A stretch of DNA of 32,000 nt from Ktedonobacterales bacterium. Its GTDB lineage: Bacteria; Chloroflexota; Ktedonobacteria; Ktedonobacterales; JADMIN01. Positions 1,636-27,637 of the stretch are shown in pieces (within the stretch, counting starts at the first letter, position 1; every line of letters starts with the position of its first letter). Below the pieces are notes generated by a model, which saw only the letters and a list, made by a program, of their open reading frames with translations, had not been told where the DNA came from and did not search any database. The stretch is taken from contig CP126532.1 of assembly GCA_030167145.1 (NCBI GenBank), positions 4,410,001-4,442,000 of the forward strand, written 5' to 3'. The position numbers and the translations under genes were made by a program.

Positions 1636-1856
1636 CCGTTTGGCGCCTTGCGCTCATTCCAGCAGCGCCGCGAAGGGGCCGCAGCTATCGGTTTCGCCAG
1701 GCGCGGTCAGGAAAGTCAAGAGATAGCCACCTGGCCTGAATGGCTTTGCTGTGCTATATCTCTCCTATATATCCCTGGCATTGGCGACCAAGCAAACGCC
1801 CGATTACGGATGCGAGCGAATGGCAACCCTGGCAGAGCCGGATGGGAGGGAAGCGC

Positions 1857-4382
1857 ATGGCGATACAATCGGCACACCACCCGGCGGAGAACACGCCTCC
1901 CATCCCGTTGCGGCTCTTCAATACGCTCACGCGGCAGCGCCAGACCTTTGAACCCCTAGAGCCAGGCCGTGCGCGCATGTACAGTTGCGGGCCGACCGTA
2001 TACCGCTACATCCATATTGGCAACCTGCGCACCTTTGCTATGGCGGATTGGCTGCGTCGCACGCTGATCTACCAGGGCATCACGGTGACGCATATCAAGA
2101 ACATTACCGATGTGGGGCATATGCGCCAGGAGGTGCTGGATCGCGGCGAGGACAAGATGATTGCTCAGGCGCTGCGCGAGGGCAAGACTCCCTGGGAGAT
2201 TGCGGAGTTCTATACCACAGCCTTCCATCAGGATGAGGCCGCGCTGAATATCCTGCCCGCACAGGTCTTCCCCCGCGCGACCGATCATATCCCTGAGATG
2301 ATCGCGCTGGCCCAACGCCTCCTCGAACGCGGCTATGCCTACGAGGCGGAGGGCAATGTCTTCTTCTCTGTGCAGGCGTTTCCCGGCTATGGGCAGTTGA
2401 GCGGCAACCGGCTGGAGCATATCGGCCAGGGCCTGCGCACCGAGACCGAACTGAGCGGACTAAAGCGCGCCCCTGAAGACTTCCCGCTGTGGAAGCTGGC
2501 CGAACCGGGCCGCATGATGGCATGGGATAGCCCGTGGGGACGCGGCTTCCCTGGCTGGCACATCGAATGTAGCGCGATGAGCGCGAAGTATCTGGGCGAG
2601 CAATTCGACATCCACACCGGCGGCATTGACAACTTGTTTCCCCATCACGAGGACGAGCGCGCGCAGAGCGAGGCAGCCAGCGGCAAGCAATTCGTGCGCT
2701 ACTGGGTACACGCACAGCATCTCCTCGCCGACGGCCTGAAAATGGCAAAATCCACCGGCAACGCCTACACCCTGGCGGATATTCAGGCGCGCGGCTTCGC
2801 GCCACTAGCGTTGCGCTTCTTCTTCACCACGGCGCACTATCGCAGCCGCATCAATTTCACATTTCGCGGATTGCGCGCGGCACAGACGGGACTCGAACGC
2901 CTATATGAGTGTGCGTACCGGCTCAGCGCCGAAGCGCATGGCGCTTCCGATGCAGCCGGTGAGTTACGCCATCATCTCTACGCGCGGGCATTTCTGACCG
3001 CAGTGAATGACGACCTGAACCTGCCACGCGCTATGGCGGTGGTCTGGGCAATGGTGCGCGACCAGAACACGCCACCCGAAACGCGGCTCGCGCTGCTCTA
3101 CCTCTTTGACAAGGTGCTCGGCTTCGGGCTGGCGGACGCCGTGCGGCAGCGCGACGCGGACCGGCGCGTGTGGGCTGCTGGCGTAGACTCAACAGGCGCA
3201 ACGCTCGAAGCCAATGAGGATATACCCACAGCGGTGCTCACTGTGGCGCGAGAACGGGCCTCGGCGCGAGCACGCCGCGATTTCGCGGCGGCAGACACGC
3301 TACGCGGCCAACTGGCGGAATTGGGATACTCCGTGGGGGATGGTGCGACTGTAACACGCCTTATGCCCATACGCGAGCGTGAAGAGCTGATGAGCAGTTC
3401 CACTGATGTCCCTTCCCAGCTAGAGGCGCCCGCACGCTTTGCCTTTTCGGTTCATCTGCTCGCGCACAACAACCGCGACGACCTGGAACGCTGTGTCGAG
3501 AGCGTCTGCCGCGCCGCTGGCGATCAGCGTATCGAACTGGTCATCGTTGATAATGGCTCGACCGACGAGACGTTGCCCTATCTGCGCCACCTGCAACGCC
3601 AGGGCGAGCGTCACGGCGTACCCCTGCGGGTGTTTTTCGCGGACCACGACATGGGCTTTGCGGCGGCGCGCAACGCGAGCGTGCGAGCAAGCCTGGGCGA
3701 GATCGTGGTGCTGTTGGATACCAGCATCGGGGTGACCGGCGACATCTGGACGCCGATCTCCACAGCGCTGGCAAATTCCACCATTGGGCTGGTGGGTCCG
3801 TTCGGATTGGTGACGACCGATCTCAAAGAGTATGCGGAGAGCAATGGGCCAGATGTGGACGCAATGGAGGGCTATCTGATGGCGTTCCGCCGCGACGCTC
3901 TTCTGGAAGTGGGGCCGATGTACGAAAAGTTTCGCTTCTATCGCCTGGCGGATGTGGATTATAGCCTCGAATTCAAGCGCGCGGGCTTTCGAGTTGTGGC
4001 GCTGCCAGAGCTGGCTGAGCGGATCGTTCAGCATCCACACCGCGAGTGGCACAGCCTGACGCCCGACGAACAGGCGACGAAGAGTAAGAAGAACTTCGAC
4101 ATCTATTGGAAACGGCGGCATCATGCGGAGAGCCTGCTTGTCGCGAACTACACCGCAGGTCAGGCCGCGCCGTGGGGCCACGACCACGAGATCACGCCAC
4201 CGGACGAAGCGGACCCACGATTTGAGCATGGCCCGACTCATGGTGACGAGTCGCTGCACGCGCATGAGCACAAGCACTGGCCGGACCACGCTCATACGCA
4301 CGCACATGTCCACACATCCGCGCTGCGCTGGCACGGCAACGAGCAGCGCGCGACCTATGCGGGAGGGCAGCGTGACCACTGA
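1857..4382 (+). CDS. cysS: Cysteine--tRNA ligase fused in frame to a C-terminal family-2 glycosyltransferase domain and a His-rich tail (841 aa)
   Basis: Start chosen at ATG 1857, with GGGAGGG at 1844-1850. The CysRS core spans about 1857-3390: [24 protein letters not shown] (HIGH-type), NITDVGH...[19 protein letters not shown] (KMSKS-type), and the C-terminal [13 protein letters not shown] helix. The GT2 region spans about 3436-4060: [21 protein letters not shown]....[14 protein letters not shown] ... VLLDTS. The His-rich tail spans about 4179-4340: [33 protein letters not shown]. It is one uninterrupted frame. Confidence 0.9.
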
Positions 4383-5139
4383 AACAGGCATACCGGGCGC
4401 ACTGGCGCTGGTGGGGTCGGGAGAGTATACGGATGCGATGCGGGATACGGATCGCCATCTGCTGGCGACACTCGGCGGGCCGAAAGCGGCGCGAGTGGCC
4501 TTGCTGCCAACGGCGAGCGGGCTAGAGGCTGATGGGCCACGCCACTGGAATGACCTGGGACAGCGTCACTTTGCCCAACTCGGCGTGCATGACATCCGTT
4601 CGTCGTGGATTCTCGACGCGAAAAGCGCGGCGGACCCAGAACAGGTGCGGCTGCTTGGTGATATAAACTTCGCCTACTTTTCGGGTGGCAGCCCGAATCA
4701 TCTGGTCGCCAGTATGCGCGGCTCGCCAGCCTGGGACGCGGTGACGCAAGCCTATCTGCGCGGCGGCGTGCTGGCTGGGTGCAGTGCGGGCGCGATGGCG
4801 CTGGGCGGCGCGACACTCTCCGTGCGGACGCTGCTCTCCGGTGGGCGCGCGGATTGGGTGGAGGCGCTGGGCATTGTGCCTCATCTCGTAGTGTTCCCAC
4901 ACTTCGACCGTTTCCTCGGCATGATGAGCAAGTCCGCGCTGCGCACCCATCTGCTCGCGCTGCCGCCCGGAATGATCGCCATCGGCATTGACGAAGATAC
5001 GGCGCTGGTACGGCTGACGCCGCCAGATGCCGCCACCGGCCGTGCCCACTGGCGCGTGATGGGCCGGCAAGGTGTCGCGCTGTTCCGGCGCGACGCGGAT
5101 ATGGAGCAACTTGCCACAGGCGACGAAGTAGAGTTGTAG
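4372..5139 (+). CDS. Peptidase S51 family protein (cyanophycinase / dipeptidase E-like, class I glutamine amidotransferase-like fold)
   Basis: LALVGSGEY...VALLPTAS...YFSGGSPNHL...GCSAGAM (nucleophile-elbow Ser)...PHFD. Start taken as GTG 4372, 4 nt after GGGAGGG (4361-4367); in-frame ATG 4357 is the alternative. Either start overlaps the 3' end of the cysS fusion (stop 4380-4382). The 5' part of track ORF 4123.. is a shadow of the cysS tail. Confidence 0.8.
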   Translation: MTTETGIPGALALVGSGEYTDAMRDTDRHLLATLGGPKAARVALLPTASGLEADGPRHWNDLGQRHFAQLGVHDIRSSWILDAKSAADPEQVRLLGDINFAYFSGGSPNHLVASMRGSPAWDAVTQAYLRGGVLAGCSAGAMALGGATLSVRTLLSGGRADWVEALGIVPHLVVFPHFDRFLGMMSKSALRTHLLALPPGMIAIGIDEDTALVRLTPPDAATGRAHWRVMGRQGVALFRRDADMEQLATGDEVEL

Positions 5140-12945: not shown

Positions 12946-15258
12946 TCACTCCATCACTGGCACGCCCGCCCCAAGCGCTCGCGACAACCCGTTGCGCCAT
13001 GCGGCATGTAGCTCAGCAGCGGGCACATCCAGCAGCGGCGACAGGGCAAGCCGGTCGCCAGCGACGACGCCCATCCGCGTGACTGGAACGCCAGCGGCCT
13101 TGGCGCGTGTCAGTACTTCATCTTCGGCTTCCGGCGCGAGCGAGACAACGATCCGCGACGGCGCTTCGCCGAAGAGCAGCGCAACGGCTTCCAGTGGCGC
13201 AGCCGTCTCCGCGAGTTGCCCGCGCAGGCCAAGCCCCGACCAGATGCAGCATTCGGCCAGCGCGACGGCCAGCCCGCCATCGGAGCAGTCGTGTGCGGAA
13301 CGGATCAGACCGGCGGCGATAGTGTCAAGCGTCAGCCGTTGCAGCGTCCGCTCGCGGTCCAGGTCCAGTGTGGGCGGGCGACCGGCGACAGTATCGTAGA
13401 GCGCGGCGAGATAGGCGCTGCCGCCGAGTGTGGCCAGATCACGCGAGGCGTCGCCCAGCAGCACCACGACATCGCCTTCGCGCTGAAACGCGCTGGGCGT
13501 TGGCGCGCGGCCCTCGATTAACCCGACCATACCAACGACCGGAGTGGGATAGATAGCCTTGCCGAAGCTCTCATTGTACAGGCTGACATTGCCGGAGATC
13601 ACCGGCGTTTCTAGGGCGTGGGCAGCAGCGGCCATGCCGTCTATCGCCTGCGCGAGTTGATAATAGACATCGAGCTTTTCTGGATTGCCAAAGTTGAGGC
13701 AGTTAGTGAGGGCCAGTGGCGTTGCGCCAGAGCAGACACAGTTGCGCGCGGCCTCGGCCACGGCGAGCGCGCCGCCATTGAACGGATCGAGATAGGTCAG
13801 GCGCCCATTGCCGTCGGTGCAGACGGCAATCGCTTTGCCCGTATCATGATCGCTGGCGTCGCGCACCCGCAGCACGGCGGCGTCGCTGCCAGGGCCAATA
13901 ACGGTATTCGAGCCCACCATCGTGTCGTAGGTGCGGTAGACATCCTCGCGCGAAGAGAGGTCAGGCGACGCGAGCAGGCGCAGCAGCGCATCATGCGCTG
14001 TAGGAAGGCGCGCGGCGAGCGAAGTCATATCAAAGCGCCACAGATCGTCGAGCGCGTCTGGGCGTTCGCCCTCGCGGATGTAGGCGGGAACAGCATCGGT
14101 TAGCAGCGTCGTCGGCACGTCCGCCACGACCTGTACACCCTCGCGGACACGAATCACTGGCTCGGCGATCACCTGGCCGATGACCTCAGAATGCAGACCC
14201 CAGCGGGCGAAAAGCGCGCGCACGTCTTCTTCATGCCCATCTCTGGCGATGACGAGCATGCGTTCCTGCGATTCGGAGAGCATGATGTCGTAGGGCGTCA
14301 TACCGGCTTCACGACGCGGAACACGCAGCACATCCAGGTCAATGCCAGAGTTGCCTTTGTGGGCGCTCTCGACGGTGGAGCTGGTCATTCCCGCCGCGCC
14401 GAGATCCTGCATGCCGACGATCCAGCCCTTGTCGCGCAGTTCGAGGCAGGCTTCCATCAGCAGCTTTTCGGTGAAGGGGTTGCCCACCTGCACAGCGGGG
14501 CGCCGCTCTTCGGAGGCTTCATCCAGTTCGACGGAGGCGAATGTCGCGCCGTGGATGCCGTCGCGGCCCGTGGATGCGCCGACAACCAGCACCGGATTGC
14601 CCGCGCCCTCAGCACGGGCGGGAATGAGCGTATTCGTTTCGATGAGTCCGACACACATCGCATTCACCAGGGGGTTGCCGCTGTAGCTGGCGTCGAAGTA
14701 GATCTCGCCGCCGACGGTGGGGATGCCGAGGCAATTGCCATAGCCGCCGACGCCGCCGACAATGCCCCGGAAGAGATAGCGGTTGCGCGGCTCGCTGAGC
14801 GGGCCAAAGCGCAGCGAATCGAGCAGGGCGATAGGGCGCGCGCCCATCGTGAAGATGTCGCGTACAATGCCGCCAACTCCCGTCGCCGCGCCCTGATACG
14901 GCTCGATGGCGCTGGGGTGGTTGTGGCTCTCGATCTTCATGACCACGGCCAGGCCGTCGCCAATATCCACCGCGCCCGCATTCTCCGCGCCCGCCTTGAG
15001 CAGCACACGCGCGCCATTGACCGGAAAACGCTTGAGCAGCGGGCGGCTATTTTTGTAGCCGCAGTGCTCGCTCCACATTGCGCCGAAGAGGCCCAGTTCG
15101 AGCCGGTTGGGCACGCGGCCAAGCAGGCGCACGATCTCTGTGTATTCATCGCGGGTCAGCGCCACTTCATCCAGCGCACGCTGATCTATGGTGAGTGGGT
15201 CGTTGGCTGCGTTGTGTGGGGTGGCGGCGTTCGTCGTCGGTGCGGAATCGGCGGGCAC
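12946..15258 (-). CDS. purL: Phosphoribosylformylglycinamidine synthase subunit PurL
   Basis: LELGLFGAMWSEHCGYKNS, ESHNHPS, GAATGVGGIVRDIF, two AIR-synthase-like repeats. Start set to GTG 15258 (VPADSAP...), which is in frame with the track ORF. AGGAG (15269-15265) lies 6 nt upstream, and there is no ATG between the track start and the conserved core. This gives 770 aa, typical of PurL. Confidence 0.9.
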   Translation of the reverse strand: MPADSAPTTNAATPHNAANDPLTIDQRALDEVALTRDEYTEIVRLLGRVPNRLELGLFGAMWSEHCGYKNSRPLLKRFPVNGARVLLKAGAENAGAVDIGDGLAVVMKIESHNHPSAIEPYQGAATGVGGIVRDIFTMGARPIALLDSLRFGPLSEPRNRYLFRGIVGGVGGYGNCLGIPTVGGEIYFDASYSGNPLVNAMCVGLIETNTLIPARAEGAGNPVLVVGASTGRDGIHGATFASVELDEASEERRPAVQVGNPFTEKLLMEACLELRDKGWIVGMQDLGAAGMTSSTVESAHKGNSGIDLDVLRVPRREAGMTPYDIMLSESQERMLVIARDGHEEDVRALFARWGLHSEVIGQVIAEPVIRVREGVQVVADVPTTLLTDAVPAYIREGERPDALDDLWRFDMTSLAARLPTAHDALLRLLASPDLSSREDVYRTYDTMVGSNTVIGPGSDAAVLRVRDASDHDTGKAIAVCTDGNGRLTYLDPFNGGALAVAEAARNCVCSGATPLALTNCLNFGNPEKLDVYYQLAQAIDGMAAAAHALETPVISGNVSLYNESFGKAIYPTPVVGMVGLIEGRAPTPSAFQREGDVVVLLGDASRDLATLGGSAYLAALYDTVAGRPPTLDLDRERTLQRLTLDTIAAGLIRSAHDCSDGGLAVALAECCIWSGLGLRGQLAETAAPLEAVALLFGEAPSRIVVSLAPEAEDEVLTRAKAAGVPVTRMGVVAGDRLALSPLLDVPAAELHAAWRNGLSRALGAGVPVME

Positions 15259-15315
15259 GGTGCGCTCCTGGCCACGAGGGCGATAGGTATGAGGTGTCTC
15301 GCTGACACAAGAATG

Positions 15316-15324
15316 ATTATACCA
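15316..15324 (-). promoter_or_regulatory. Extended -10 element TGGTATAAT upstream of purL
   Basis: The minus strand reads TGGTATAATC, about 58 nt upstream of the proposed GTG. No good -35 is present. The identical 10-mer occurs upstream of nuoA (434-425). Confidence 0.45.
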
Positions 15325-15452
15325 GCAGCGAAGGCAATCCTCATTCCCGCCACATCGCCCAATCCAGAGTGGCGGAATCTGGTGGCTGGCCCATATAATC
15401 GGTGAGGCGCAGAGATGAGCAGCATCGGTGTGTGTCGTTCGCTTGTCGCAGC

Positions 15453-15481
15453 TTGACACAACGCCATGTCTTGTTTATCAT
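15453..15481 (+). promoter_or_regulatory. Near-consensus promoter: TTGACA, 17-nt spacer, TATCAT
   Basis: TTGACA at 15453-15458 and TATCAT at 15476-15481. It faces the MEDS gene and implies a leader of about 200 nt. Confidence 0.5.
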
Positions 15482-20285: not shown

Positions 20286-21233
20286 CTAGACCGACGACAC
20301 TCGCGCGCGAAACACCCCAGGCGCGCAGCGCAGCGCCAGCGCAGCGCCATCCAGCCGCCACGGCGCGTCGAGCGTCGCCTCGGCGTCGAAATCCAGCGGC
20401 GCAACGAGCCGGAACTCGCGCTCAGGCGTGGCGATCACGATTGGCTGGCCGCGCGCCAGCACGCCCGAGGCGAAGTTATACGCCCAGCGCGCCGGGCGGT
20501 CTGGCGTGATGCGATAGTCCTCCGCGCTGGGCAGCGAATAGCTGGTCGCGCGGCTCTCGTCCTGGGGACGCGGCGCGAGCGTGCCAGCGGCCAGGCCCTT
20601 GAGGCTGGCAATGAGCAGCGGCCCCGCGACCTCAGCGCACATCCGCTCCAGCCGCGCCTCCGAGACGCCATCGCGCATGATGATCGTTTCTTGCGCGAGC
20701 ACTGGCCCGCTATCGAACCCCTCGTCCATCAGATGAATCGTCACGCCAGTCTGCGCGTCGCCGCGTTGAAACACCCAGAACAGCGGATCGGGTCCGCGAT
20801 TGTCTGGCAGCAGCGACGGATGGACATTCAGGCAGCCGAGCCGGGGCAGCCGTAGCACATCGGGAGGCAGGCGGCGCGGAAAGCATGAGACGCAGATGGC
20901 GTCGGGCGCGAACCCGGACAGCGTCGCCAGCGTTTCGCGAGCGCGCAAACGCGCCACCTCGAAGACCGGAACGCCAGTATCGGCGGCGATTTGGCGGATG
21001 CCGCGCTCCACCGGCAGCAGCGCCCGCGCTTTCCGGGACGCGCTCGCGGGTGGTGGAAGCTCGCGAGTCGGCGGCGTTTCCGGCCTCACATCGCCACTCA
21101 GCGCCGCCATCACCACCGCGCGCACATCAATACCCGCTCGCAGCAACGATTCCAGCGGCAGCGCCGACAGCACGCCCGACATGCCGAAGAACACGACACT
21201 CAATTGTGGCCGCAAAGCAGGCTCAGCGCTCAT
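20286..21233 (-). CDS. Formyltransferase-family protein (methionyl-tRNA formyltransferase-like paralog)
   Basis: 315 aa. LNVHPSLLPDNRGPDPLFW (the canonical HxSLLPxxRG motif), TGVTIHLMDEGFDSGPVL, and a C-terminal Fmt-like domain (PQDESRATSYSLP). The N-terminal third carries an atypical Pro/Ala-rich insertion in place of the usual TQPDRPxGRG segment. Confidence 0.75.
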   Translation of the reverse strand: MSAEPALRPQLSVVFFGMSGVLSALPLESLLRAGIDVRAVVMAALSGDVRPETPPTRELPPPASASRKARALLPVERGIRQIAADTGVPVFEVARLRARETLATLSGFAPDAICVSCFPRRLPPDVLRLPRLGCLNVHPSLLPDNRGPDPLFWVFQRGDAQTGVTIHLMDEGFDSGPVLAQETIIMRDGVSEARLERMCAEVAGPLLIASLKGLAAGTLAPRPQDESRATSYSLPSAEDYRITPDRPARWAYNFASGVLARGQPIVIATPEREFRLVAPLDFDAEATLDAPWRLDGAALALRCAPGVFRARVSSV

Positions 21234-21336: not shown

Positions 21337-21675
21337 ATGGCGCATATGGTAGATTGTGTGAAACTTGGCCGCAGGCTGCCGGGGCTGGAAAAGCCGCCCA
21401 TGCCCGGCGAGTTTGGCAAGCGCATTTACGACAACATCTCGCAGCAGGCGTGGGATATGTGGCAGGAACAGTCGCGGCTGATTATCAACCACTACGGCCT
21501 GAATCTCGGCGACCCGGACTCGCGCCAGGTGCTTCGCCAGCAGATGGAAGAGTTCCTTTTCGGCGAAGATGCGCGCATGCCCGAAGGCTGGGTGCCCGAA
21601 GGGCAGGGCGGCAAAGGCGGTGGCGCGCCCGCCAGCAAGGGTGGCGCTCCAGCGGCGGCCCCGCGCAAGAAATGA
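21337..21675 (+). CDS. yggX: Fe(2+)-trafficking / oxidative-damage protection protein YggX
   Basis: V.C.KLGRRLPGLEKPPMPGEFGKRIYDNISQQAWDMWQEQSRLIINHYGLNL.DP..R..L.QQMEEFLFGE aligns by eye along the whole of E. coli YggX. A Gly/Ala/Lys-rich tail follows. Confidence 0.9.
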   Translation: MAHMVDCVKLGRRLPGLEKPPMPGEFGKRIYDNISQQAWDMWQEQSRLIINHYGLNLGDPDSRQVLRQQMEEFLFGEDARMPEGWVPEGQGGKGGGAPASKGGAPAAAPRKK

Positions 21676-23162
21676 TGGACGTGCCCGGCGAGATTCTACT
21701 GGTTTCCTGCTACGAGCTAGGGCACCAGCCGCTAACCCTCGCTTCGCCGCTGGCGCTGTTGCGCGCCGATGGTTTCGCTCCCGTCTCGGTGGACACCTCG
21801 GTGAGCGAGCTGACGGACGAGGTGATACGCGCCGCGCGGCTCGTGGCGATCTCCGTCCCCATGCATACCGCGCTACGGCTGGGCGCGCGTGTAGCTGAGC
21901 GCGTCCGCGCAGCCCATCCATCGGCGCATATCTGCTTCTACGGCCTCTACGCCTCGCTCAACGCCGACTACCTCTTGCGCGAACATGCCGATTTCGTCAT
22001 CGGCGGCGAGTACGAGGCGGCGCTGCTGGGGCTGGCCCGCGCGCTTGCCAGCGGCGATGTATCGCCATCCGTCCCTGGCGTCCGCACGCGCGCAGTGGAT
22101 GCGCCACCAGTGCTGGCGCGCCTGCCATTCGTCCAACCGGAGCGCGCGAGCTTGCCGACAGCGAAGTCCTACGCGCATCTGGTGCGCGGCGACGAAGTGG
22201 TGCCAGCGGGCTATGTCGAGGCCAGTCGTGGCTGCCTGCACACCTGCCGTCACTGCCCGATCACGCCAGTCTACGGTGGGCGCTTCTTCATCGTGCCGCG
22301 CGGCGTCGTCCTCGCCGACATCCGCGCCCAGGTCGCGGCGGGCGTCCGCCACATCACCTTCGGCGACCCCGATTTCCTCAACGGTCCGGGCCACTCGCTG
22401 GCAATTGTCCGCGCGCTGCATGCCGAGTTCCCCGATGTCACCTTCGACGCGACGATCAAGATCGAGCATATTCTGGAGCGGCGCGACGTCTTCCCTGAGC
22501 TTGCCGCACTGGGCTGCGCGTTCGTTGTCTCAGCCGTGGAATCGCTGAGCGCGGAGGTGCTACGCCACCTGAAGAAGGGCCACACCCGCGCCGACGTGGC
22601 TGAGGCGCTGACGATTCTCGATGACGCGGGCATCCCGATGCGCCCAACCTTTGTCGCCTTCACTCCCTGGACCACTGCCCGCGCCTACGTGGACGTGCTG
22701 GACTTCATCGCCGAACATGACCTCATCGAACACGTAGACCCCGTGCAATACACCATCCGGCTGCTCGTCCCCCCTGGCTCCGCTCTGCTCGAAGAAGCTG
22801 ATGCCACCACCTGGCTTGGCCCACTCGATGAGCCAAACTTCACCTATCAGTGGGCTCACCCCGACCCGCGCATGGATGACATGCAGCGCGCGGTGGCGGC
22901 GCTGGTGGAGCGCGAGACAGTGGCGCAGCGCGACAACGCGAGCATCTTCGCGGCGATTCGCGCGCTCGCCGAAGAGATGCTCGGCGTCCCCGCCAGCGCC
23001 CGCACCTGGGGCACACAGCGTGGCGGCGTCGCGACGAAGCGCCGACCCGTCCCCCACCTCACCGAAGCGTGGTTCTGCTGAGCGGAACCCACCGCGGAGC
23101 AGTTGGCTCCCCACGATTCATCCACGCCAGTACATTGGCGTCCGTTCACCCCAGAATTATAG
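21672..23162 (+). CDS. B12-binding-domain radical SAM protein with an in-frame UGA (selenocysteine) in a C-U-A-E-P tail
   Basis: Start ATG 21672 overlaps the yggX stop (ATGA). MMDVPGEILLVSCYELGHQP... is a B12-binding-like N-domain, and SRGCLHTCRHC is the CX3CX2C rSAM cluster motif. The track ORF stops at TGA 23079-23081, straight after ...EAWFC. The next codons are GCG GAA CCC (AEP) and the frame stays open to TAG 23160-23162. If TGA is a true stop the CDS is 21672..23081. The 681-nt 5' extension in the track (from 20991) overlaps the fmt-like gene and yggX and is rejected. Confidence 0.8.
23082..23110 (+). promoter_or_regulatory. Candidate bacterial SECIS: two hairpins immediately 3' of the UGA
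   Basis: Hairpin 1: GCGG (23082-85), loop aaccca, CCGC (23092-95). Hairpin 2: GGAGC (23096-23100), loop aguug, GCUCC (23106-10). The second apical loop contains G and U and starts 19 nt after the UGA. Folded by hand only. Confidence 0.5.
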
Positions 23163-23470
23163 GGCGGCGGTGGGCTTGGTTGTTCACCGTCGTTCGTCGT
23201 TGTTCGTCCTGGGTGGGGTCGGCATTGGGGTCACAGATGTTTTGTTGGCTGCTGATGAAAAGTCCCCTGGATGGGCCCATCACTGCTTGACAGTGCCAGT
23301 CAATGCTGAATTTTTCACGCCTTGATATCGCCGTTTGCCTGCCAGTGTTTATGGGTGTTCACTCTGTTGGCTACCAATTAGGCTGTCAAGATTTATGCGC
23401 CTTGTTGAGATACGTGCTGAGATACGTCTAGAGTGCCTGCGAAATCTGAGTTCCCACCTGCTGGTGGTTA

Positions 23471-23944
23471 CTAAGGTATTTGTGCGCGAGTAGTGGGTAT
23501 CGCGAGCAATTGTGACTCTGGTACACCGAGTATCTGGGCTAACTTGGACCAAAATGCCTCGGTGGTCAGCCGCCCTTCCGAAGTGTCCCACGAGATGGTA
23601 CCGCATCCCTCCGGTGAGGCGACTGCCCTCATAAGAACCTGAGAACTGCGGGAAAATGTCAACTCAAATCTTAGGCCGAAATCAACGGGACAACTCACAT
23701 CACCCTTAGGCCCGAACGGCAAAGACGGAATGAGAGTATACAGAGATTGGACTAAAGTACTCGTTACGGTGCGATCAAGTGGGGCGGCTTCATTGCTTGG
23801 CAAGATAACGTAGCGCACAACGCGAAGGGACGAGGGCATAGCAGTGGAATGGCCAAGCACACTACTTGGATCAGTATGGCCGCATGCAGTCAACAAGATG
23901 GGCATGCAGATCATCAGGAGAACAACCCATCGCCGGGCTAACAT
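23471..23944 (-). CDS. Hypothetical lipoprotein (157 aa)
   Basis: ATG 23944 follows GGAGG (23955-23951) by 6 nt. MLARRWVVLLMICMPILLTACGH is a signal peptide plus lipobox L-T-A-C. No family recognised. It lies in a lower-GC segment. Confidence 0.65.
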   Translation of the reverse strand: MLARRWVVLLMICMPILLTACGHTDPSSVLGHSTAMPSSLRVVRYVILPSNEAAPLDRTVTSTLVQSLYTLIPSLPFGPKGDVSCPVDFGLRFELTFSRSSQVLMRAVASPEGCGTISWDTSEGRLTTEAFWSKLAQILGVPESQLLAIPTTRAQIP

Positions 23945-24298
23945 GAGATACCTCCACTTGTGCGGGACCAGTGCGGATACTGCAGCCGCTAGGCCATGCG
24001 TGACGTTGAGCACTAAGGCTGAATCATCTGCGCTCCTTACTCGTGGTGAGCTACCCATAACGCGAGCGCCCTCCACCACAGATAATTACGTTGTGACACC
24101 ATCATCACAGGTGTGAAATGAAGCATACCCTGGCAAGGTGCCTGGGCCAGTAGGCAAGGTATACATGTAGAGCCCAGGCACGCTATGAACTCAATCCTCC
24201 GGTGCCGAACTCATACAGATCAGCGCAGAGCAAGGACACCACACCTATTCCGGACGAGTTCGGCGTCCAATGTTGGCCTCACCCACGCTTCGGCATGG

Positions 24299-25324
24299 CT
24301 ACGAACAGTAATAGCCGTCGTTCCCGGTAAAGATCCAGGAGTCGGTAAAGATGGTGCCATTATTCATCAGGCCGCTTACCGAGGTCATCTGAGCACCAAG
24401 TGTATCGTACATCGTGAGTTGGTCGTTTGGCCAGCCAGAGATACCGTGATTCGTGGACCCCTGGGAGGCATCTGCCTTTGTCCACGCCACTTGATCGATT
24501 TGCTCATAGTAGTGAGGATGGGTGACCCCACTTATTGTGCATGAGGGCCGTTCCTCAACCCATTCTGCACTCTGCTGATTCGGCCGCACCTTGTAAGTAA
24601 CGGAAGTGTACTTGTTTGTGTACTCATTGACGACGACAAAATAGGAGTACCCAGAAACGTTGACACTCCAGTCAGCTTCAGCGTAAGTTAGCTGACGGCA
24701 CGTCGGAGCGATATTGGCGAAGTACTGTATGTTGTTGTTCGGGTACATCTCCCACCAATACCGATATCCGTTGACAGCATCAGACTCGCTTCCTCCTTGC
24801 CAAAGAGAAGTTGTAGGATATCCGCCAAGGCCGACCCACGAGACTGCTAAGGGCTTCCCGCCAGACCCTCCCTGGTAGCAGGGTACCACCCATGTGCCTT
24901 CCACGAGCGTGAATCCGGAGCCAGTCGCTACGTAGCCTGACCAAATGGTATTGGTTCTGTAAGAAGTGCTGTAGGGTTGCAATTGGAAATTCGCTGGTGC
25001 CGATTGTGAAGCATCGCAGACCCTATGTTTTGAGTGATGCATAGCTTGCACCCAATCGGCCAACTGCGCACTTGATCCTCGTGGGCGGCGAGGCAACCCA
25101 TAAGTGAGCAACTGCTGATCTGAACTGCTCAAGGGATCAAAAGTTGGCGGGGGTTGCAAGCAAGTCTTCTGGCCTTGAAAGTACGCTGTGACCATAGGAT
25201 CAGAAGTAGTTGCTATATATCCCCGTGTCGCATGTGCTTGAATGAGCGAAGCGCTGGGGATGGCCGCCACTGACGATATCAGTGCAAGAAGGAAGGCTAA
25301 TACCGCGTTCTTGGACGTCTGCAT
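24299..25324 (-). CDS. Secreted glutamic peptidase homolog (peptidase G1 / Pfam Peptidase_A4, eqolisin-like)
   Basis: Signal peptide MQTSKNAVLAFLLALISSVAAIPSA and a pro-region of about 110 aa. Then TIWSGYVA.G..F..V.G.W.VP, AVSWVGLGG, LWQGG (candidate catalytic Gln), YRYWWEMYP, SAEWVEERP (candidate catalytic Glu). The order and spacing match scytalidoglutamic and aspergilloglutamic peptidases. ATG 25324 lies 8 nt after GGAGG. Confidence 0.7.
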   Translation of the reverse strand: MQTSKNAVLAFLLALISSVAAIPSASLIQAHATRGYIATTSDPMVTAYFQGQKTCLQPPPTFDPLSSSDQQLLTYGLPRRPRGSSAQLADWVQAMHHSKHRVCDASQSAPANFQLQPYSTSYRTNTIWSGYVATGSGFTLVEGTWVVPCYQGGSGGKPLAVSWVGLGGYPTTSLWQGGSESDAVNGYRYWWEMYPNNNIQYFANIAPTCRQLTYAEADWSVNVSGYSYFVVVNEYTNKYTSVTYKVRPNQQSAEWVEERPSCTISGVTHPHYYEQIDQVAWTKADASQGSTNHGISGWPNDQLTMYDTLGAQMTSVSGLMNNGTIFTDSWIFTGNDGYYCS

Positions 25325-25337
25325 TCCTACCACCTCC

Positions 25338-25376
25338 GAAATAACTCAGCCTTGAGGATTCTCCTCAACAAGGCTG
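25338..25376 (-). terminator. Terminator-like hairpin plus U-rich tail directly upstream of the G1-peptidase RBS
   Basis: CAGCC-TTGAGGA-ttc-TCCTCAA-caa-GGCTG (25347-25376). On the minus strand it is followed by AGUUAUUUC (25346-25338), then GGAGG (25337-25333). Confidence 0.4.
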
Positions 25377-25797
25377 CTCAAACAGCGACATGCCTATGAT
25401 AGCATCTGTATACTAGAGGTCCAGAATAGTAATCACATATAGTACTATTTGGCAGGTACAGGGTACGGGTGCAGAAACTCAAATCCTAGATGGACTGAGA
25501 TGCCTTGATTATTGGGTACGCGAAATATAGACACGGATATAGATACACAGGCGGTTGTTGGAAAGCGTGTAGACTGATCAGTACTGATGAGGCAACGGCC
25601 GCTTTCGGGGTGGTGTGTGGCAGATGGCTTAGTTACGGGAGGGATGTTCAGAGAGCACTGTATCTCAGATTCCTTGGAAGTTCTTTAGCATATGACTGGC
25701 TGTTAGACGCTGATTGCAACGTGCAATGGCAAGCGCATAGTATGGTGCTGCTCGGCTATCGGCTTGAGTCACCACATGGGATGGACCGTAGCGGTAT

Positions 25798-27111
25798 TTA
25801 ATCTCTGCGTCGCGCGCCGAAGCCGAACCACACGATCAGCAGCACCGCGCTCAGCGCGTAGAACGGCATCGCCGCGAAGAACGACGCCTGATAGCCCGCC
25901 AGCGCGATCAGCCAGCCGCCCACCCCCGCGCCCAGCGCGCCGCCAACCTGAAAGCTCACGTTGTACGCGCTGCTGGCGTTCACACGCGACTTGTCGGGTA
26001 CTGCCCCCATCAGATAGGTCTGCAGCGGTGGCGTCGTCACGGCCATCAGGAAACCGCGTATCAGATACGCCAGCGACGCAATCACCACCACCGGGAACGC
26101 GCCGATAGCCACCAGAAACGGCAGCGACGCGACCTGCGCCGCGATACCCGTGCGCATCGTGCCCCACCGCCGCGCCAGCGGGATCGCCACCAGCGCCGCC
26201 ACCGCTATCGCCACCGAATACACCGTCGTCAGCACGCCGAAATACGCCGTCGAAACGCCTAACTGGTTGACGAAATACAGATTGGCATAGGGAAAGAAGA
26301 TGCCCGCGCCGAAACCGACCAATCCCTCCGCCACCGCGAACCGTCCCGCCACGCCCACCGCTCCCACGCGTACCGCCCGCAGCCATGCTCCCATCCGCGC
26401 CCTGAGCGGCGGCGCGAGCATATCATCTCCAGCGCTTCCTGTCGCGGCTGTCGCCTTGCGCGGCTCCTCGCGCATCATAAATACCGGAATGATCGAGGGC
26501 ACGGCGATCACCCCCGTCGCCAGCAGCGCCAGTTCGTAGGCCTGCGCCTTTGCGCCAGAGACGAGCAGTGGCTGTAGCGCCTGCATCCACGCCGAGGACT
26601 GCACCTCCGCGCTCAGGAACCACCCAGGCAGGAATCCGCCAAGCAGCGTCCCGATGATCGTCGCCAGGAACACCAGCGCGTTATTCAAGCCAAAGAGCGA
26701 GATGCGCTGCTCGGCAGTGCTGTAGGTCGTCAGCAGCGGCGTATTGATCACCAGGAACAGCGCCAGCGAGATCCCCACACCTAGCGTCGTCACCAGCACC
26801 ACCGGCGGCGTCGGCACGATCAGTTGCGCGGCGATGGAGAAGCCGCCGATGAAGTTCGACCAGAGCAGGAAGGCGCGATACCCCGCGCGATGCGCCAGCG
26901 GGCTGGCGATGACGATGCCCAGCGCCGCGCCAATAGCGCCCACAACCGTGACGATGCCGATGAACTTGGTGCTATAGCCCAGCGCGTTGAGATACAGCGT
27001 ATACAGCACCACGGCTGCCCCGGCCGTTGGCGCCTGCATCGCATTCGAGATGAGATACAGCCGCGCGTTGCGCTGGAGCGCGCGAAAGCGCGCGAGCAGG
27101 TCACTGAGCAT
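25798..27111 (-). CDS. MFS transporter
   Basis: About 12 hydrophobic segments with an MFS-like loop pattern (LAHRAGYRAFLLW, PLARRWGTMRTG). ATG 27111 (MLSDLLARFRALQRN...) is preferred; it overlaps the upstream gene's stop by 11 nt. The track start at 27201 would overlap by 101 nt. Confidence 0.85.
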   Translation of the reverse strand: MLSDLLARFRALQRNARLYLISNAMQAPTAGAAVVLYTLYLNALGYSTKFIGIVTVVGAIGAALGIVIASPLAHRAGYRAFLLWSNFIGGFSIAAQLIVPTPPVVLVTTLGVGISLALFLVINTPLLTTYSTAEQRISLFGLNNALVFLATIIGTLLGGFLPGWFLSAEVQSSAWMQALQPLLVSGAKAQAYELALLATGVIAVPSIIPVFMMREEPRKATAATGSAGDDMLAPPLRARMGAWLRAVRVGAVGVAGRFAVAEGLVGFGAGIFFPYANLYFVNQLGVSTAYFGVLTTVYSVAIAVAALVAIPLARRWGTMRTGIAAQVASLPFLVAIGAFPVVVIASLAYLIRGFLMAVTTPPLQTYLMGAVPDKSRVNASSAYNVSFQVGGALGAGVGGWLIALAGYQASFFAAMPFYALSAVLLIVWFGFGARRRD

Positions 27112-27637
27112 CGCGGGCGCGGCGGTCGTCGGGGCCGGTATCGGGGCGGTCCTCGTCCGGTCGGGGCTGATGGCCGTTGTGCCCGTTGAGCGCGTGGCCA
27201 TTCACCGCCGCATCGAAGACGTTGACGTGTGGCGTGGCCTCCTCGCCCATCGCGGGCAGGTCGGCGGCGCTCGCGGTAATCAGTTGCAGTTCCTCAGAGG
27301 CGCGGATGCGTCCTTCCTCGCGCACCCGCTCTGCCGCCCGCCTGCCAAAGAGTAGCACGCTGATGCTCGTCCGCACCTGCTGGCGTCGCCCATAAAACTC
27401 CGCGACACCGCCCACGACTCTATCGCTGCCCTGCTGCGCGATGGTCATCGCCTGCTGCGCCCTGGGCGCATACTCCTGAAGCACCGGCGTGACATGCGTG
27501 TGCAGCCACCGCGCGCCGAGCGCCAGGGCGATCATCAGCGCGCAGACCACGATGAGCACCAGCCCCAGCTCTATCGTGAGGATGACGCCCGCAATCTGCG
27601 CGGCGGTGTGCAGCCACTCCGGCTCAGCGATTACCAT
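27101..27637 (-). CDS. Hypothetical membrane protein (178 aa)
   Basis: One strong TM helix (IAGVILTIELGLVLIVVCALMIALALG), then a charged, helical, low-complexity tail. Its start overlaps the upstream gene by 14 nt and its end overlaps the MFS start. Confidence 0.6.
   Translation of the reverse strand: MVIAEPEWLHTAAQIAGVILTIELGLVLIVVCALMIALALGARWLHTHVTPVLQEYAPRAQQAMTIAQQGSDRVVGGVAEFYGRRQQVRTSISVLLFGRRAAERVREEGRIRASEELQLITASAADLPAMGEEATPHVNVFDAAVNGHALNGHNGHQPRPDEDRPDTGPDDRRARDAQ

Follow-up and report, generated by a model that had tools for sequence, protein, structure and literature searches.

A tri-part recoding signature identifies a CUAEP-tail radical SAM gene from a Ktedonobacterales bacterium as a probable selenoprotein gene and a relative of the arsinothricin enzyme ArsL

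Introduction

We analysed a 32,000-nucleotide stretch of a Ktedonobacterales (Chloroflexota) genome (assembly GCA_030167145.1, contig CP126532.1, positions 4,410,001 to 4,442,000; hereafter the window, with position 1 its first letter). The gene at 21672-23162 of the forward strand very probably encodes a 496-residue member of the CUAEP/CCAEP-tail family of radical S-adenosylmethionine (SAM) proteins, in which the UGA at 23079-23081 would be translated as selenocysteine (Sec). A column of the alignment that holds only TGA or TGY, a conserved tail behind it, and a hairpin whose covariation is confined to the TGA forms together make up a recoding signature and mark the hairpin as a Sec insertion sequence (SECIS). 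From this signature, we infer SelB dependence and actual selenium incorporation. The CUAEP selenoprotein family was already known before this analysis, and the window gene is an ordinary instance of this catalogued family whose public annotation is truncated. What we add is a SECIS backed by covariation and by Cys-form controls, the rejection of two decoy structures, a conserved gene neighbourhood, a quantitative link to the C-As bond-forming enzyme ArsL, and a culturable organism that carries the gene.

Results

The gene continues through an in-frame UGA into a family-specific tail

The radical SAM gene starts with the ATG at 21672 (MMDVPGEILL...) and encodes 469 residues up to Cys469. At 23064-23090 on the + strand the window reads GAA GCG TGG TTC TGC TGA GCG GAA CCC, corresponding to E-A-W-F-C-UGA-A-E-P, of which the last five codons (TGC TGA GCG GAA CCC, 23076-23090) make up the CUAEP motif; the first-pass annotation, which had claimed a Cys-UGA-Ala-Glu-Pro reading at this TGA, is borne out on this point. 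Its further claim of 27 open codons to the TAG was right about the open frame and wrong about the count, as 26 sense codons follow and the number 27 includes the UGA. The truncation that it expected of standard gene callers is real: the database protein P0001 (469 aa, named 'Radical SAM domain protein' by NCBI/JGI, from a Ktedonobacterales metagenome-assembled genome, MAG) is identical to the window protein up to WFC, where its public gene call stops, and a mechanical list of open reading frames (ORFs) likewise closes the gene at 23081. A terminator-like hairpin with a T-rich tail occupies 23162-23205 (+) and begins at the last base of the TAG; its position fits a gene end at 23162, not 23081, in a scan whose yield was at chance level (one site, where 1.4 would be expected).

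Once a residue is placed at the UGA, the window protein scores 732 bits against the model NF040546, 'CUAEP/CCAEP-tail radical SAM (seleno)protein' (rSAM_CUAEP; cutoff 500). Residues 8-479 align with positions 1-467 of the 468 in the model, and the alignment spans C-U-A-E-P-T-A-E-Q-L. The family that the first-pass annotation had named thus exists, and the window protein belongs to it. The likeness comprises the CxxxCxxC motif, the W-F-C-U-A-E-P tail, the alternation of Sec and Cys, and a match over the full length, and nothing essential differs. The window tail after the Sec is longer than usual (26 aa, in a family range of 10-38 with a median of about 15), and the public entry for this instance is truncated and generically named. 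Cys188, Cys192 and Cys195 of the radical SAM motif are invariant in alignments of 25 and 120 sequences, and the radical SAM domain PF04055 matches at 48 bits.

NF040546 matched 586 stretches in one scan of species-representative genomes. In the literature, a single sentence on the family was found, in a preprint by Haft, which lists NF040546 as an uncharacterised protein with a rare CU motif and names it among the organometallic enzymes in which CU motifs are concentrated (bioRxiv 10.1101/2022.07.06.499078). A review from 2026 on prokaryotic selenoproteins (PMC13188914) leaves the family out of its main text, and a literature search that combined Ktedonobacter or Thermomicrobium with selenocysteine or selenoprotein found nothing relevant.

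The codon after WFC is TGA or a Cys codon across about ten phyla

Orthologous loci (80) were taken from species-representative genomes of about ten phyla, including Chloroflexota (Ktedonobacterales and Thermomicrobiales), Blastocatellia, Nitrospirota, Rokubacteria, Planctomycetota and Gemmatimonadota; the best orthologue is 75% identical to the window protein. Among the 78 loci that reach the codon after WFC, this codon is TGA in 61, TGC in nine and TGT in eight, and it is never TAA or TAG. The residues that follow are Glu and Pro in all 78 loci, preceded by Ala in 74, and the [A]EPTxxQ(L/F) tail motif is common to the TGA and Cys forms. The homologue alignment that the first-pass annotation had proposed as a check accordingly gives a column of TGA (61) or Cys (17) with an invariant Glu-Pro behind it. 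The four closest relatives (71-75% identity) carry the TGA form. Public proteins mirror this pattern: among the best 120 homologues in the database, 105 stop precisely at ...WFC, 14 run on into WFCCAEPT(S/A)(D/E)QL, and the last one, P0120, matches the contig of locus L005 and ends differently, apparently through a frameshift.

The stop codon that lies about 15 codons past the Sec column is TGA itself in 25 of the 59 complete TGA-form genes, which indicates that the recoding is local and position-specific. TGA is also the ordinary stop for eight of the window's 15 Pfam-supported genes, among them the next gene upstream, and genome-wide reassignment of TGA was rejected on this ground.

A compact hairpin downstream of the UGA covaries only in TGA forms

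In the window, the putative SECIS stem starts 14 nt after the UGA, with 19 nt (23082-23100) between the UGA and the first loop base, and the loop carries G-U at positions 2-3. The hairpin folds at -8.0 kcal/mol in context and at -6.9 kcal/mol as a bare 15-mer. The consensus for bacterial SECIS elements (bSECIS) specifies a loop of 3-9 nt, an upper stem of 4-16 bp, a distance of 16-37 nt from the UGA, a G at loop position 1 or 2 with G or U after it, and a minimum free energy (MFE) of at most -7.5 kcal/mol (PMC13188914). The folding and SECIS check that had been suggested therefore comes out in favour of this hairpin, which agrees with every element of the consensus (loop 5 nt, stem 5 bp, G-U, 19 nt, -8.0 kcal/mol), the energy being marginal. 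A lone 5-bp hairpin is not significant in sequence of 65% GC; the weight is carried by comparative data.

Covariation was scored on an alignment of 58 TGA orthologues, with 17 Cys-form orthologues as the control. A stem of 5-8 bp that closes an AGUU(N)-type loop was found at the same codon-locked place in 57 of the 58 TGA loci, starting 13-15 nt after the UGA across the family; a few loci have loop variants such as GGAAA or CGUCG. The 5-bp core helix is 95.9% paired and shows compensatory double changes at four of its five pairs (such as G-C/A-U at 29:39 and C-G/U-A/G-C at 30:38). Its covariation score was not equalled in any of 500 column shuffles, and sliding the 3' arm lowered pairing to 31-51%. 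Importantly, an extended helix of seven pairs is 84.5% paired in the TGA forms versus 41% in the Cys forms, where it does no better than shuffles. Cys forms encode the same peptide motif, yet their helix is at chance level, which ties the hairpin to the UGA and not to the protein sequence. Within the loop, all 58 TGA orthologues have G33, and conservation of A32 and T35 is 90% or higher. The AGUU(N) loop is formed by the conserved Gln-Leu/Phe codons CAG-UUN, and the variable codons that flank them provide the covarying stem. The first-pass proposal that GGAGC-AGUUG-GCUCC at 23096-23110 is a SECIS is thus supported by TGA-specific covariation. Like SECIS elements of the fdhF type, the hairpin lies inside the coding region just 3' of the UGA and has a 5-nt loop with G-U at positions 2-3; it differs in being very compact (5 bp here, 5-8 bp family-wide) and in matching no Rfam model.

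Two further structures near the UGA did not withstand the same comparison. The first-pass annotation had included a hairpin that directly follows the UGA (GCGG 23082-85 / CCGC 23092-95). It is present in the window but only 64.7% paired in the orthologue alignment with almost no covariation, and 23082-23095 was rejected as part of the element. In the MFE fold, the UGA itself sits in the triloop of an 8-bp palindrome, which is paired at 98.7% in TGA forms and 95.6% in Cys forms. Since the Cys forms have it too, the palindrome was rejected as a Sec signal, and its presence in both forms identifies it as a by-product of the invariant W-F-C-[U/C]-A-E-P codons.

The palindrome region shows just one Sec-specific trace, a purine bias in the codon after the UGA (nearly always Ala; 23082-23084 in the window), which has a purine at the wobble position in 58 of 61 Sec forms versus 11 of 17 Cys forms (Fisher p = 0.003, with no correction for phylogeny). 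The bias could stem from pairing with U23076 or from an influence of codon context on how the UGA is decoded. Separately, a few Cys forms keep a near-perfect hairpin. Among them is the TGT-form gene of Thermogemmatispora carboxidivorans PM5 (locus L024, 11384-11437), with CGGGACC-AGUUC-GGUCUCGG, apparently the fossil of a recent switch from Sec to Cys.

Sec machinery in TGA-form genomes and points against recoding

Several observations weigh against recoding in the window. The stem has the minimum length (5 bp) and its energy lies barely under -7.5 kcal/mol. Moreover, an Rfam scan of 22800-23400 at E<=10 returned two chance-level hits and no SECIS family; Rfam models bacterial SECIS elements poorly. 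Finally, searches with ARAGORN and with tblastn (E. coli SelA, SelB and SelD as queries) found no tRNA-Sec, selA, selB or selD within the 32-kb window. Its one tRNA is a tRNA-Lys, and a gene with an AIRS domain (12946-15459) is PurL-like.

Across the 80 orthologous loci, ARAGORN detected no tRNA-Sec within 10 kb of any orthologue, and tblastn with the same three queries found only selD, in three Blastocatellia loci. At L048, selD (818-1786, - strand) lies about 8 kb from a TGA-form radical SAM gene and itself has TGA where E. coli SelD has Cys17, with a 10-bp hairpin behind it whose loop is GUG. At L080, selD (1966-2991, -) stands beside an operon of ATP-grasp and radical SAM genes and has the same TGA and a strong hairpin, and the contig ends before the C-terminus of the radical SAM protein. 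At L029, selD (3995-4912, -) also stands beside such an operon, with Cys codons in both selD and the radical SAM gene. The Sec or Cys state of selD can be paired with that of the radical SAM gene in two of these loci only, L048 and L029. The Sec-type selD near the TGA-form gene in L048 makes at least one TGA-form genome a probable Sec decoder, which supports recoding indirectly.

A TGA-form gene that is 61.5% identical to the window gene is carried by the megaplasmid of Thermomicrobium roseum DSM 5159 (NC_011961.1, 796591-798027; locus L083). It reads ...TESWFC-TGA-AEPLEDPSGP..., with the hairpin GGACC-CGUCG-GGUCC. The RefSeq coding sequence (CDS) ends at the UGA, and the frame continues as AEPLEDPSGPVASQVRMVDQPLR. 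The gene is flanked by a pyridoxal-phosphate (PLP) aminotransferase gene and an MFS transporter gene, and the locus is devoid of the conserved neighbours described below (YggX, Fmt-like, ATP-grasp and Nfu). In a plasmid collection searched with SelA and SelD of E. coli and SelD of Blastocatellia, the matches listed (40-60 of about 150-170) did not include Thermomicrobium; this collection holds plasmids only, so that the T. roseum chromosome lies outside it.

Alternatives to selenocysteine insertion

We weighed three other accounts of the UGA. It is highly improbable that the window copy is a decaying selenoprotein gene in a genome without Sec decoding, that is, a functional pseudogene of a real family. 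Switching between Sec and Cys is frequent in the family, so Sec loss does occur in these lineages; however, those that abandoned Sec switched the codon to Cys, whereas the window gene has kept its UGA, its AEPTAEQLAP tail motif and its hairpin intact, and its relatives L001, L003, L004 and L005 (71-75% identity) are all of the TGA form.

That the UGA is a genuine stop, with a 469-aa protein ending in ...EAWFC and the downstream similarity a relic of an ancestral Cys form, is barely credible. The public gene calls that end at ...WFC and the window's lack of Sec machinery agree with it. However, 61 independent lineages keep TGA, never TAA or TAG, together with the in-frame [A]EPTxxQ(L/F) motif and the covarying hairpin, and pairing of the hairpin falls to chance level once the codon is Cys, so that relics do not persist. 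In ArsL, moreover, loss of the tail abolishes product formation (bioRxiv 10.1101/2024.02.01.577332).

Readthrough without selenium, by near-cognate Trp- or Cys-tRNA suppression aided by the hairpin or by a reassigned code, can be set aside with similar assurance: downstream hairpins can in general stimulate readthrough, but TGA terminates eight of 15 confident window genes, the alternative residue at the column is always Cys (the classic Sec signature), the loop has the G-U demanded by the bSECIS consensus (PMC13188914), and in L048 the TGA-form gene has a Sec-type selD about 8 kb away.

The fold resembles AprD4, and ArsL is the closest characterised relative

The first-pass annotation described a B12-binding protein. 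The B12-binding domain PF02310 scores 28.9 bits on the window protein, below its gathering cutoff of 32.1. Structural comparison used the AlphaFold model of P0008, a Cys-form homologue that is 72% identical to the window protein (overall predicted local distance difference test, pLDDT, 91.7). Its best match among solved structures is the radical SAM diol dehydratase AprD4 (PDB 6FD2; TM 0.66-0.70, E 2e-18), which ranks ahead of the cobalamin enzymes QCMT, TsrM, OxsB and TokK. According to a recent review, AprD4 and ArsL homologues do not bind cobalamin (PMC12931638). Taken together, the sub-threshold domain score, the AprD4 fold and the review suggest that the B12-binding label is nominal and probably a misnomer. 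The likeness to AprD4 lies in the fold, including an N-terminal Rossmann-like domain that in AprD4 does not bind cobalamin (PMC12931638); AprD4 differs in its substrate chemistry, in having no Cys-Sec tail and in its low identity (22%).

The second-best family model for the window protein is that of ArsL, the arsinothricin C-As bond synthase (NF040542), at 310 bits. ArsL itself was rejected as the identity of the window protein, since this score lies below the cutoff of 450 and the tail is CUAEP, not RCCLKC. An RCCLKC-tail (ArsL-family) protein of Bacillus cereus is 38% identical over 407 aa, and the similarity spans the N-terminal Rossmann-like domain and the radical SAM core. Both proteins have the canonical CxxxCxxC and, past a variable linker, a vicinal-Cys motif at the very C-terminus; the two kinds of locus also have an ATP-grasp gene close by. 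The tails differ: R-C-C-L-K-C of ArsL offers three chalcogen ligands, whereas C-U-A-E-P of the window protein offers two, one of them Sec. Despite its canonical motif, ArsL cleaves SAM to a 3-amino-3-carboxypropyl radical; its RCCLKC tail binds As(III), and deletion of the tail abolishes C-As bond formation but not SAM cleavage (bioRxiv 10.1101/2024.02.01.577332; 10.64898/2026.04.29.721666). Judged by sequence similarity, ArsL is the closest characterised relative of the window protein, and the CUAEP enzymes are placed as its sister family.

Iron-sulfur and ATP-grasp genes recur around CUAEP genes

A YggX-like gene for Fe(2+) trafficking and protection from oxidative damage lies directly upstream of the window gene, and the two share an ATGA at 21672-21675, in which the YggX-like stop TGA (21673-75) overlaps the radical SAM start ATG (21672-74). 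This overlap suggests translational coupling of an iron-trafficking protein with an Fe-S enzyme. A YggX-like gene occupies the same place on the same strand in 32 of the 80 orthologous loci, from several phyla. Other recurrent neighbours are an L-amino-acid-ligase-type ATP-grasp gene (PF13535 + PF18603; 36 loci), an Fmt-like gene (22 loci, almost all labelled Chloroflexota), an Nfu-type Fe-S carrier gene (19 loci, just downstream in all but one) and DUF169 (13 loci). Feature coordinates in the window are listed in Table 1.

Table 1 Features of the CUAEP-tail gene and its neighbours in the window
Feature	Position	Strand	Basis or detail
CUAEP-tail radical SAM gene, full length, probable selenoprotein gene	21672-23162	+	496 codons including the UGA; 469 aa if cut at the UGA
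In-frame UGA, very probably read as selenocysteine (residue 470), right after invariant Cys469	23079-23081	+	Codon counts in orthologues
C-terminal tail, 26 sense codons, AEPTAEQLAPHDSSTPVHWRPFTPEL	23082-23159	+	Motif kept in Sec and Cys forms
Probable true stop codon, TAG	23160-23162	+	Window sequence
Radical SAM cluster motif C188-x3-C192-x2-C195 (CLHTCRHC)	22233-22256	+	Alignments, PF04055 match
Putative SECIS hairpin	23096-23110	+	Stem GGAGC 23096-23100 / GCUCC 23106-23110, loop AGUUG 23101-23105
8-bp palindrome GGUUCUGC-UGA-GCGGAACC, UGA in triloop	23071-23089	+	MFE fold
YggX-like gene, Fe(2+) trafficking / oxidative-damage protection	21337-21675	+	NF003817 128 bits (cutoff 74); PF04362
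Fmt-like formyltransferase gene, divergently transcribed	20286-21233	-	PF00551; TIGR00460 118 bits (below cutoff 201)

ArsL loci have other company, namely ArsR, ACR3, ArsC, MIP and GNAT, in contrast to the YggX or Nfu, ATP-grasp, DUF169 and Fmt-like genes of CUAEP loci. On the B. cereus plasmid pBFR_2 (locus L084; NZ_CP009606.1, 227016-238221), the RCCLKC-tail gene stands with genes for an ATP-grasp protein, two ArsR, a MIP channel, a GTP-binding protein, a GNAT protein, ACR3 and ArsC. The ATP-grasp protein of this locus is 24% identical to the one encoded near CUAEP genes, a generic family level.

Two other parts of the window were noted. Directly downstream of the selenoprotein gene, 23300-25800 has a GC content of 0.53-0.55, against 0.60-0.69 on both sides, and its minus-strand ORFs at 23471-24079 and 24299-25333 have no Pfam match; the stretch may be an inserted island between the radical SAM gene and a convergent MFS transporter gene (25798-27201). 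Farther away, an 880-aa ORF at 1740-4382 (+) combines a class-I catalytic domain of the Cys-tRNA-synthetase type (PF01406, aa 70-381) with a family-2 glycosyltransferase (aa 570-763), and could be an MshC-like Cys ligase-glycosyltransferase fusion or two genes read as one.

Discussion

Based on the comparative data, we propose a plausible course for the decoding of the window gene. With the UGA in the ribosomal A site, the hairpin at 23096-23110 would lie just outside the mRNA channel, where it would recruit SelB.GTP.Sec-tRNA(Sec) and thereby outcompete release factor 2. Translation would then run for 26 more codons to the TAG at 23160, placing a vicinal Cys469-Sec470 pair on the C-terminal tail.

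As to what this pair does, our preferred reading is a tentative one, drawn by analogy: the Cys-Sec tail may offer a soft-atom substrate to a radical derived from SAM, and YggX or Nfu would maintain the cluster. The tail would swing into the active site with its substrate (a metalloid, metal or chalcogen), much as ArsL holds As(III). In these aerobes, supply or protection of the [4Fe-4S] cluster would fall to the translationally coupled YggX-like protein or, in other phyla, to an Nfu-like one. The similarity to ArsL (38% identity) supports an ArsL-like mode of action by the same analogy. Some points count against this functional assignment. In the P0008 model the tail is placed with moderate confidence (pLDDT about 68 at residues 461-470, which hold the CC segment, and <50 after 472, where the chain is disordered), the window tail has two soft ligands versus the three of ArsL, and no ars genes are conserved around CUAEP genes in the orthologous loci, unlike in ArsL loci.

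A less likely, though still serious, alternative is that the Cys-Sec pair forms a redox-active selenenylsulfide tail, as in thioredoxin reductase, and that this tail quenches a substrate radical by donating electrons or a hydrogen atom. A vicinal Cys-Sec pair near a flexible C-terminus is the hallmark of thioredoxin reductase, whose tail is Gly-Cys-Sec-Gly (GCUG) and whose SECIS is of the eukaryotic kind, in the 3' untranslated region. The likeness consists in a vicinal Cys-Sec on a C-terminal extension; the two proteins share neither fold nor domain of life, and the window protein goes on for 26 residues beyond the Sec. Most bacterial selenoproteins are redox enzymes (PMC13188914), the neighbourhoods of CUAEP genes show no conserved metalloid-resistance genes, and AprD4, the best fold match, carries out a redox-neutral radical dehydration that needs a partner reductase, all of which would suit a redox tail. 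On the other hand, in ArsL, the closest homologue to have been characterised, the Cys tail binds the substrate and does not serve redox chemistry, and the survey by Haft ties CU motifs to metal-carbon chemistry (bioRxiv 10.1101/2022.07.06.499078).

Building on the substrate-holding tail, we also put forward a more speculative idea, which we regard as possible but unlikely in this full form. CUAEP enzymes might represent a second ArsL-like, non-canonical branch, in which the 3-amino-3-carboxypropyl radical of SAM is transferred to a soft atom held on the Cys-Sec claw, and the resulting hetero-atom amino acid is then processed by the L-amino-acid ligase and the Fmt-like enzyme. Equally conjectural are the soft atoms that the claw might hold on this idea, for which Se, Te, Sb, Hg, a methylated metalloid or a persulfide are candidates.

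For annotation, the corrected gene model restores 27 residues, including a probable catalytic Sec, that are absent from public records; both the 469-aa MAG protein P0001 and the T. roseum RefSeq CDS are truncated at the UGA. The SECIS definition (a stem of 5-8 bp that begins 13-15 nt past the UGA and closes a loop of the AGUU(N) type), the Cys-form controls and T. roseum provide handles for annotation pipelines and experiments. CUAEP proteins carry a rare vicinal Cys-Sec motif, and their only characterised relative makes C-As bonds by radical chemistry. If the proposed ArsL-like branch is true, the ligase (36 loci) and the Fmt-like enzyme (22 loci) would yield a hitherto undescribed organo-element metabolite or metallophore, widespread among aerobic soil bacteria of the Chloroflexota, Acidobacteriota, Nitrospirota, Rokubacteria and Planctomycetota.

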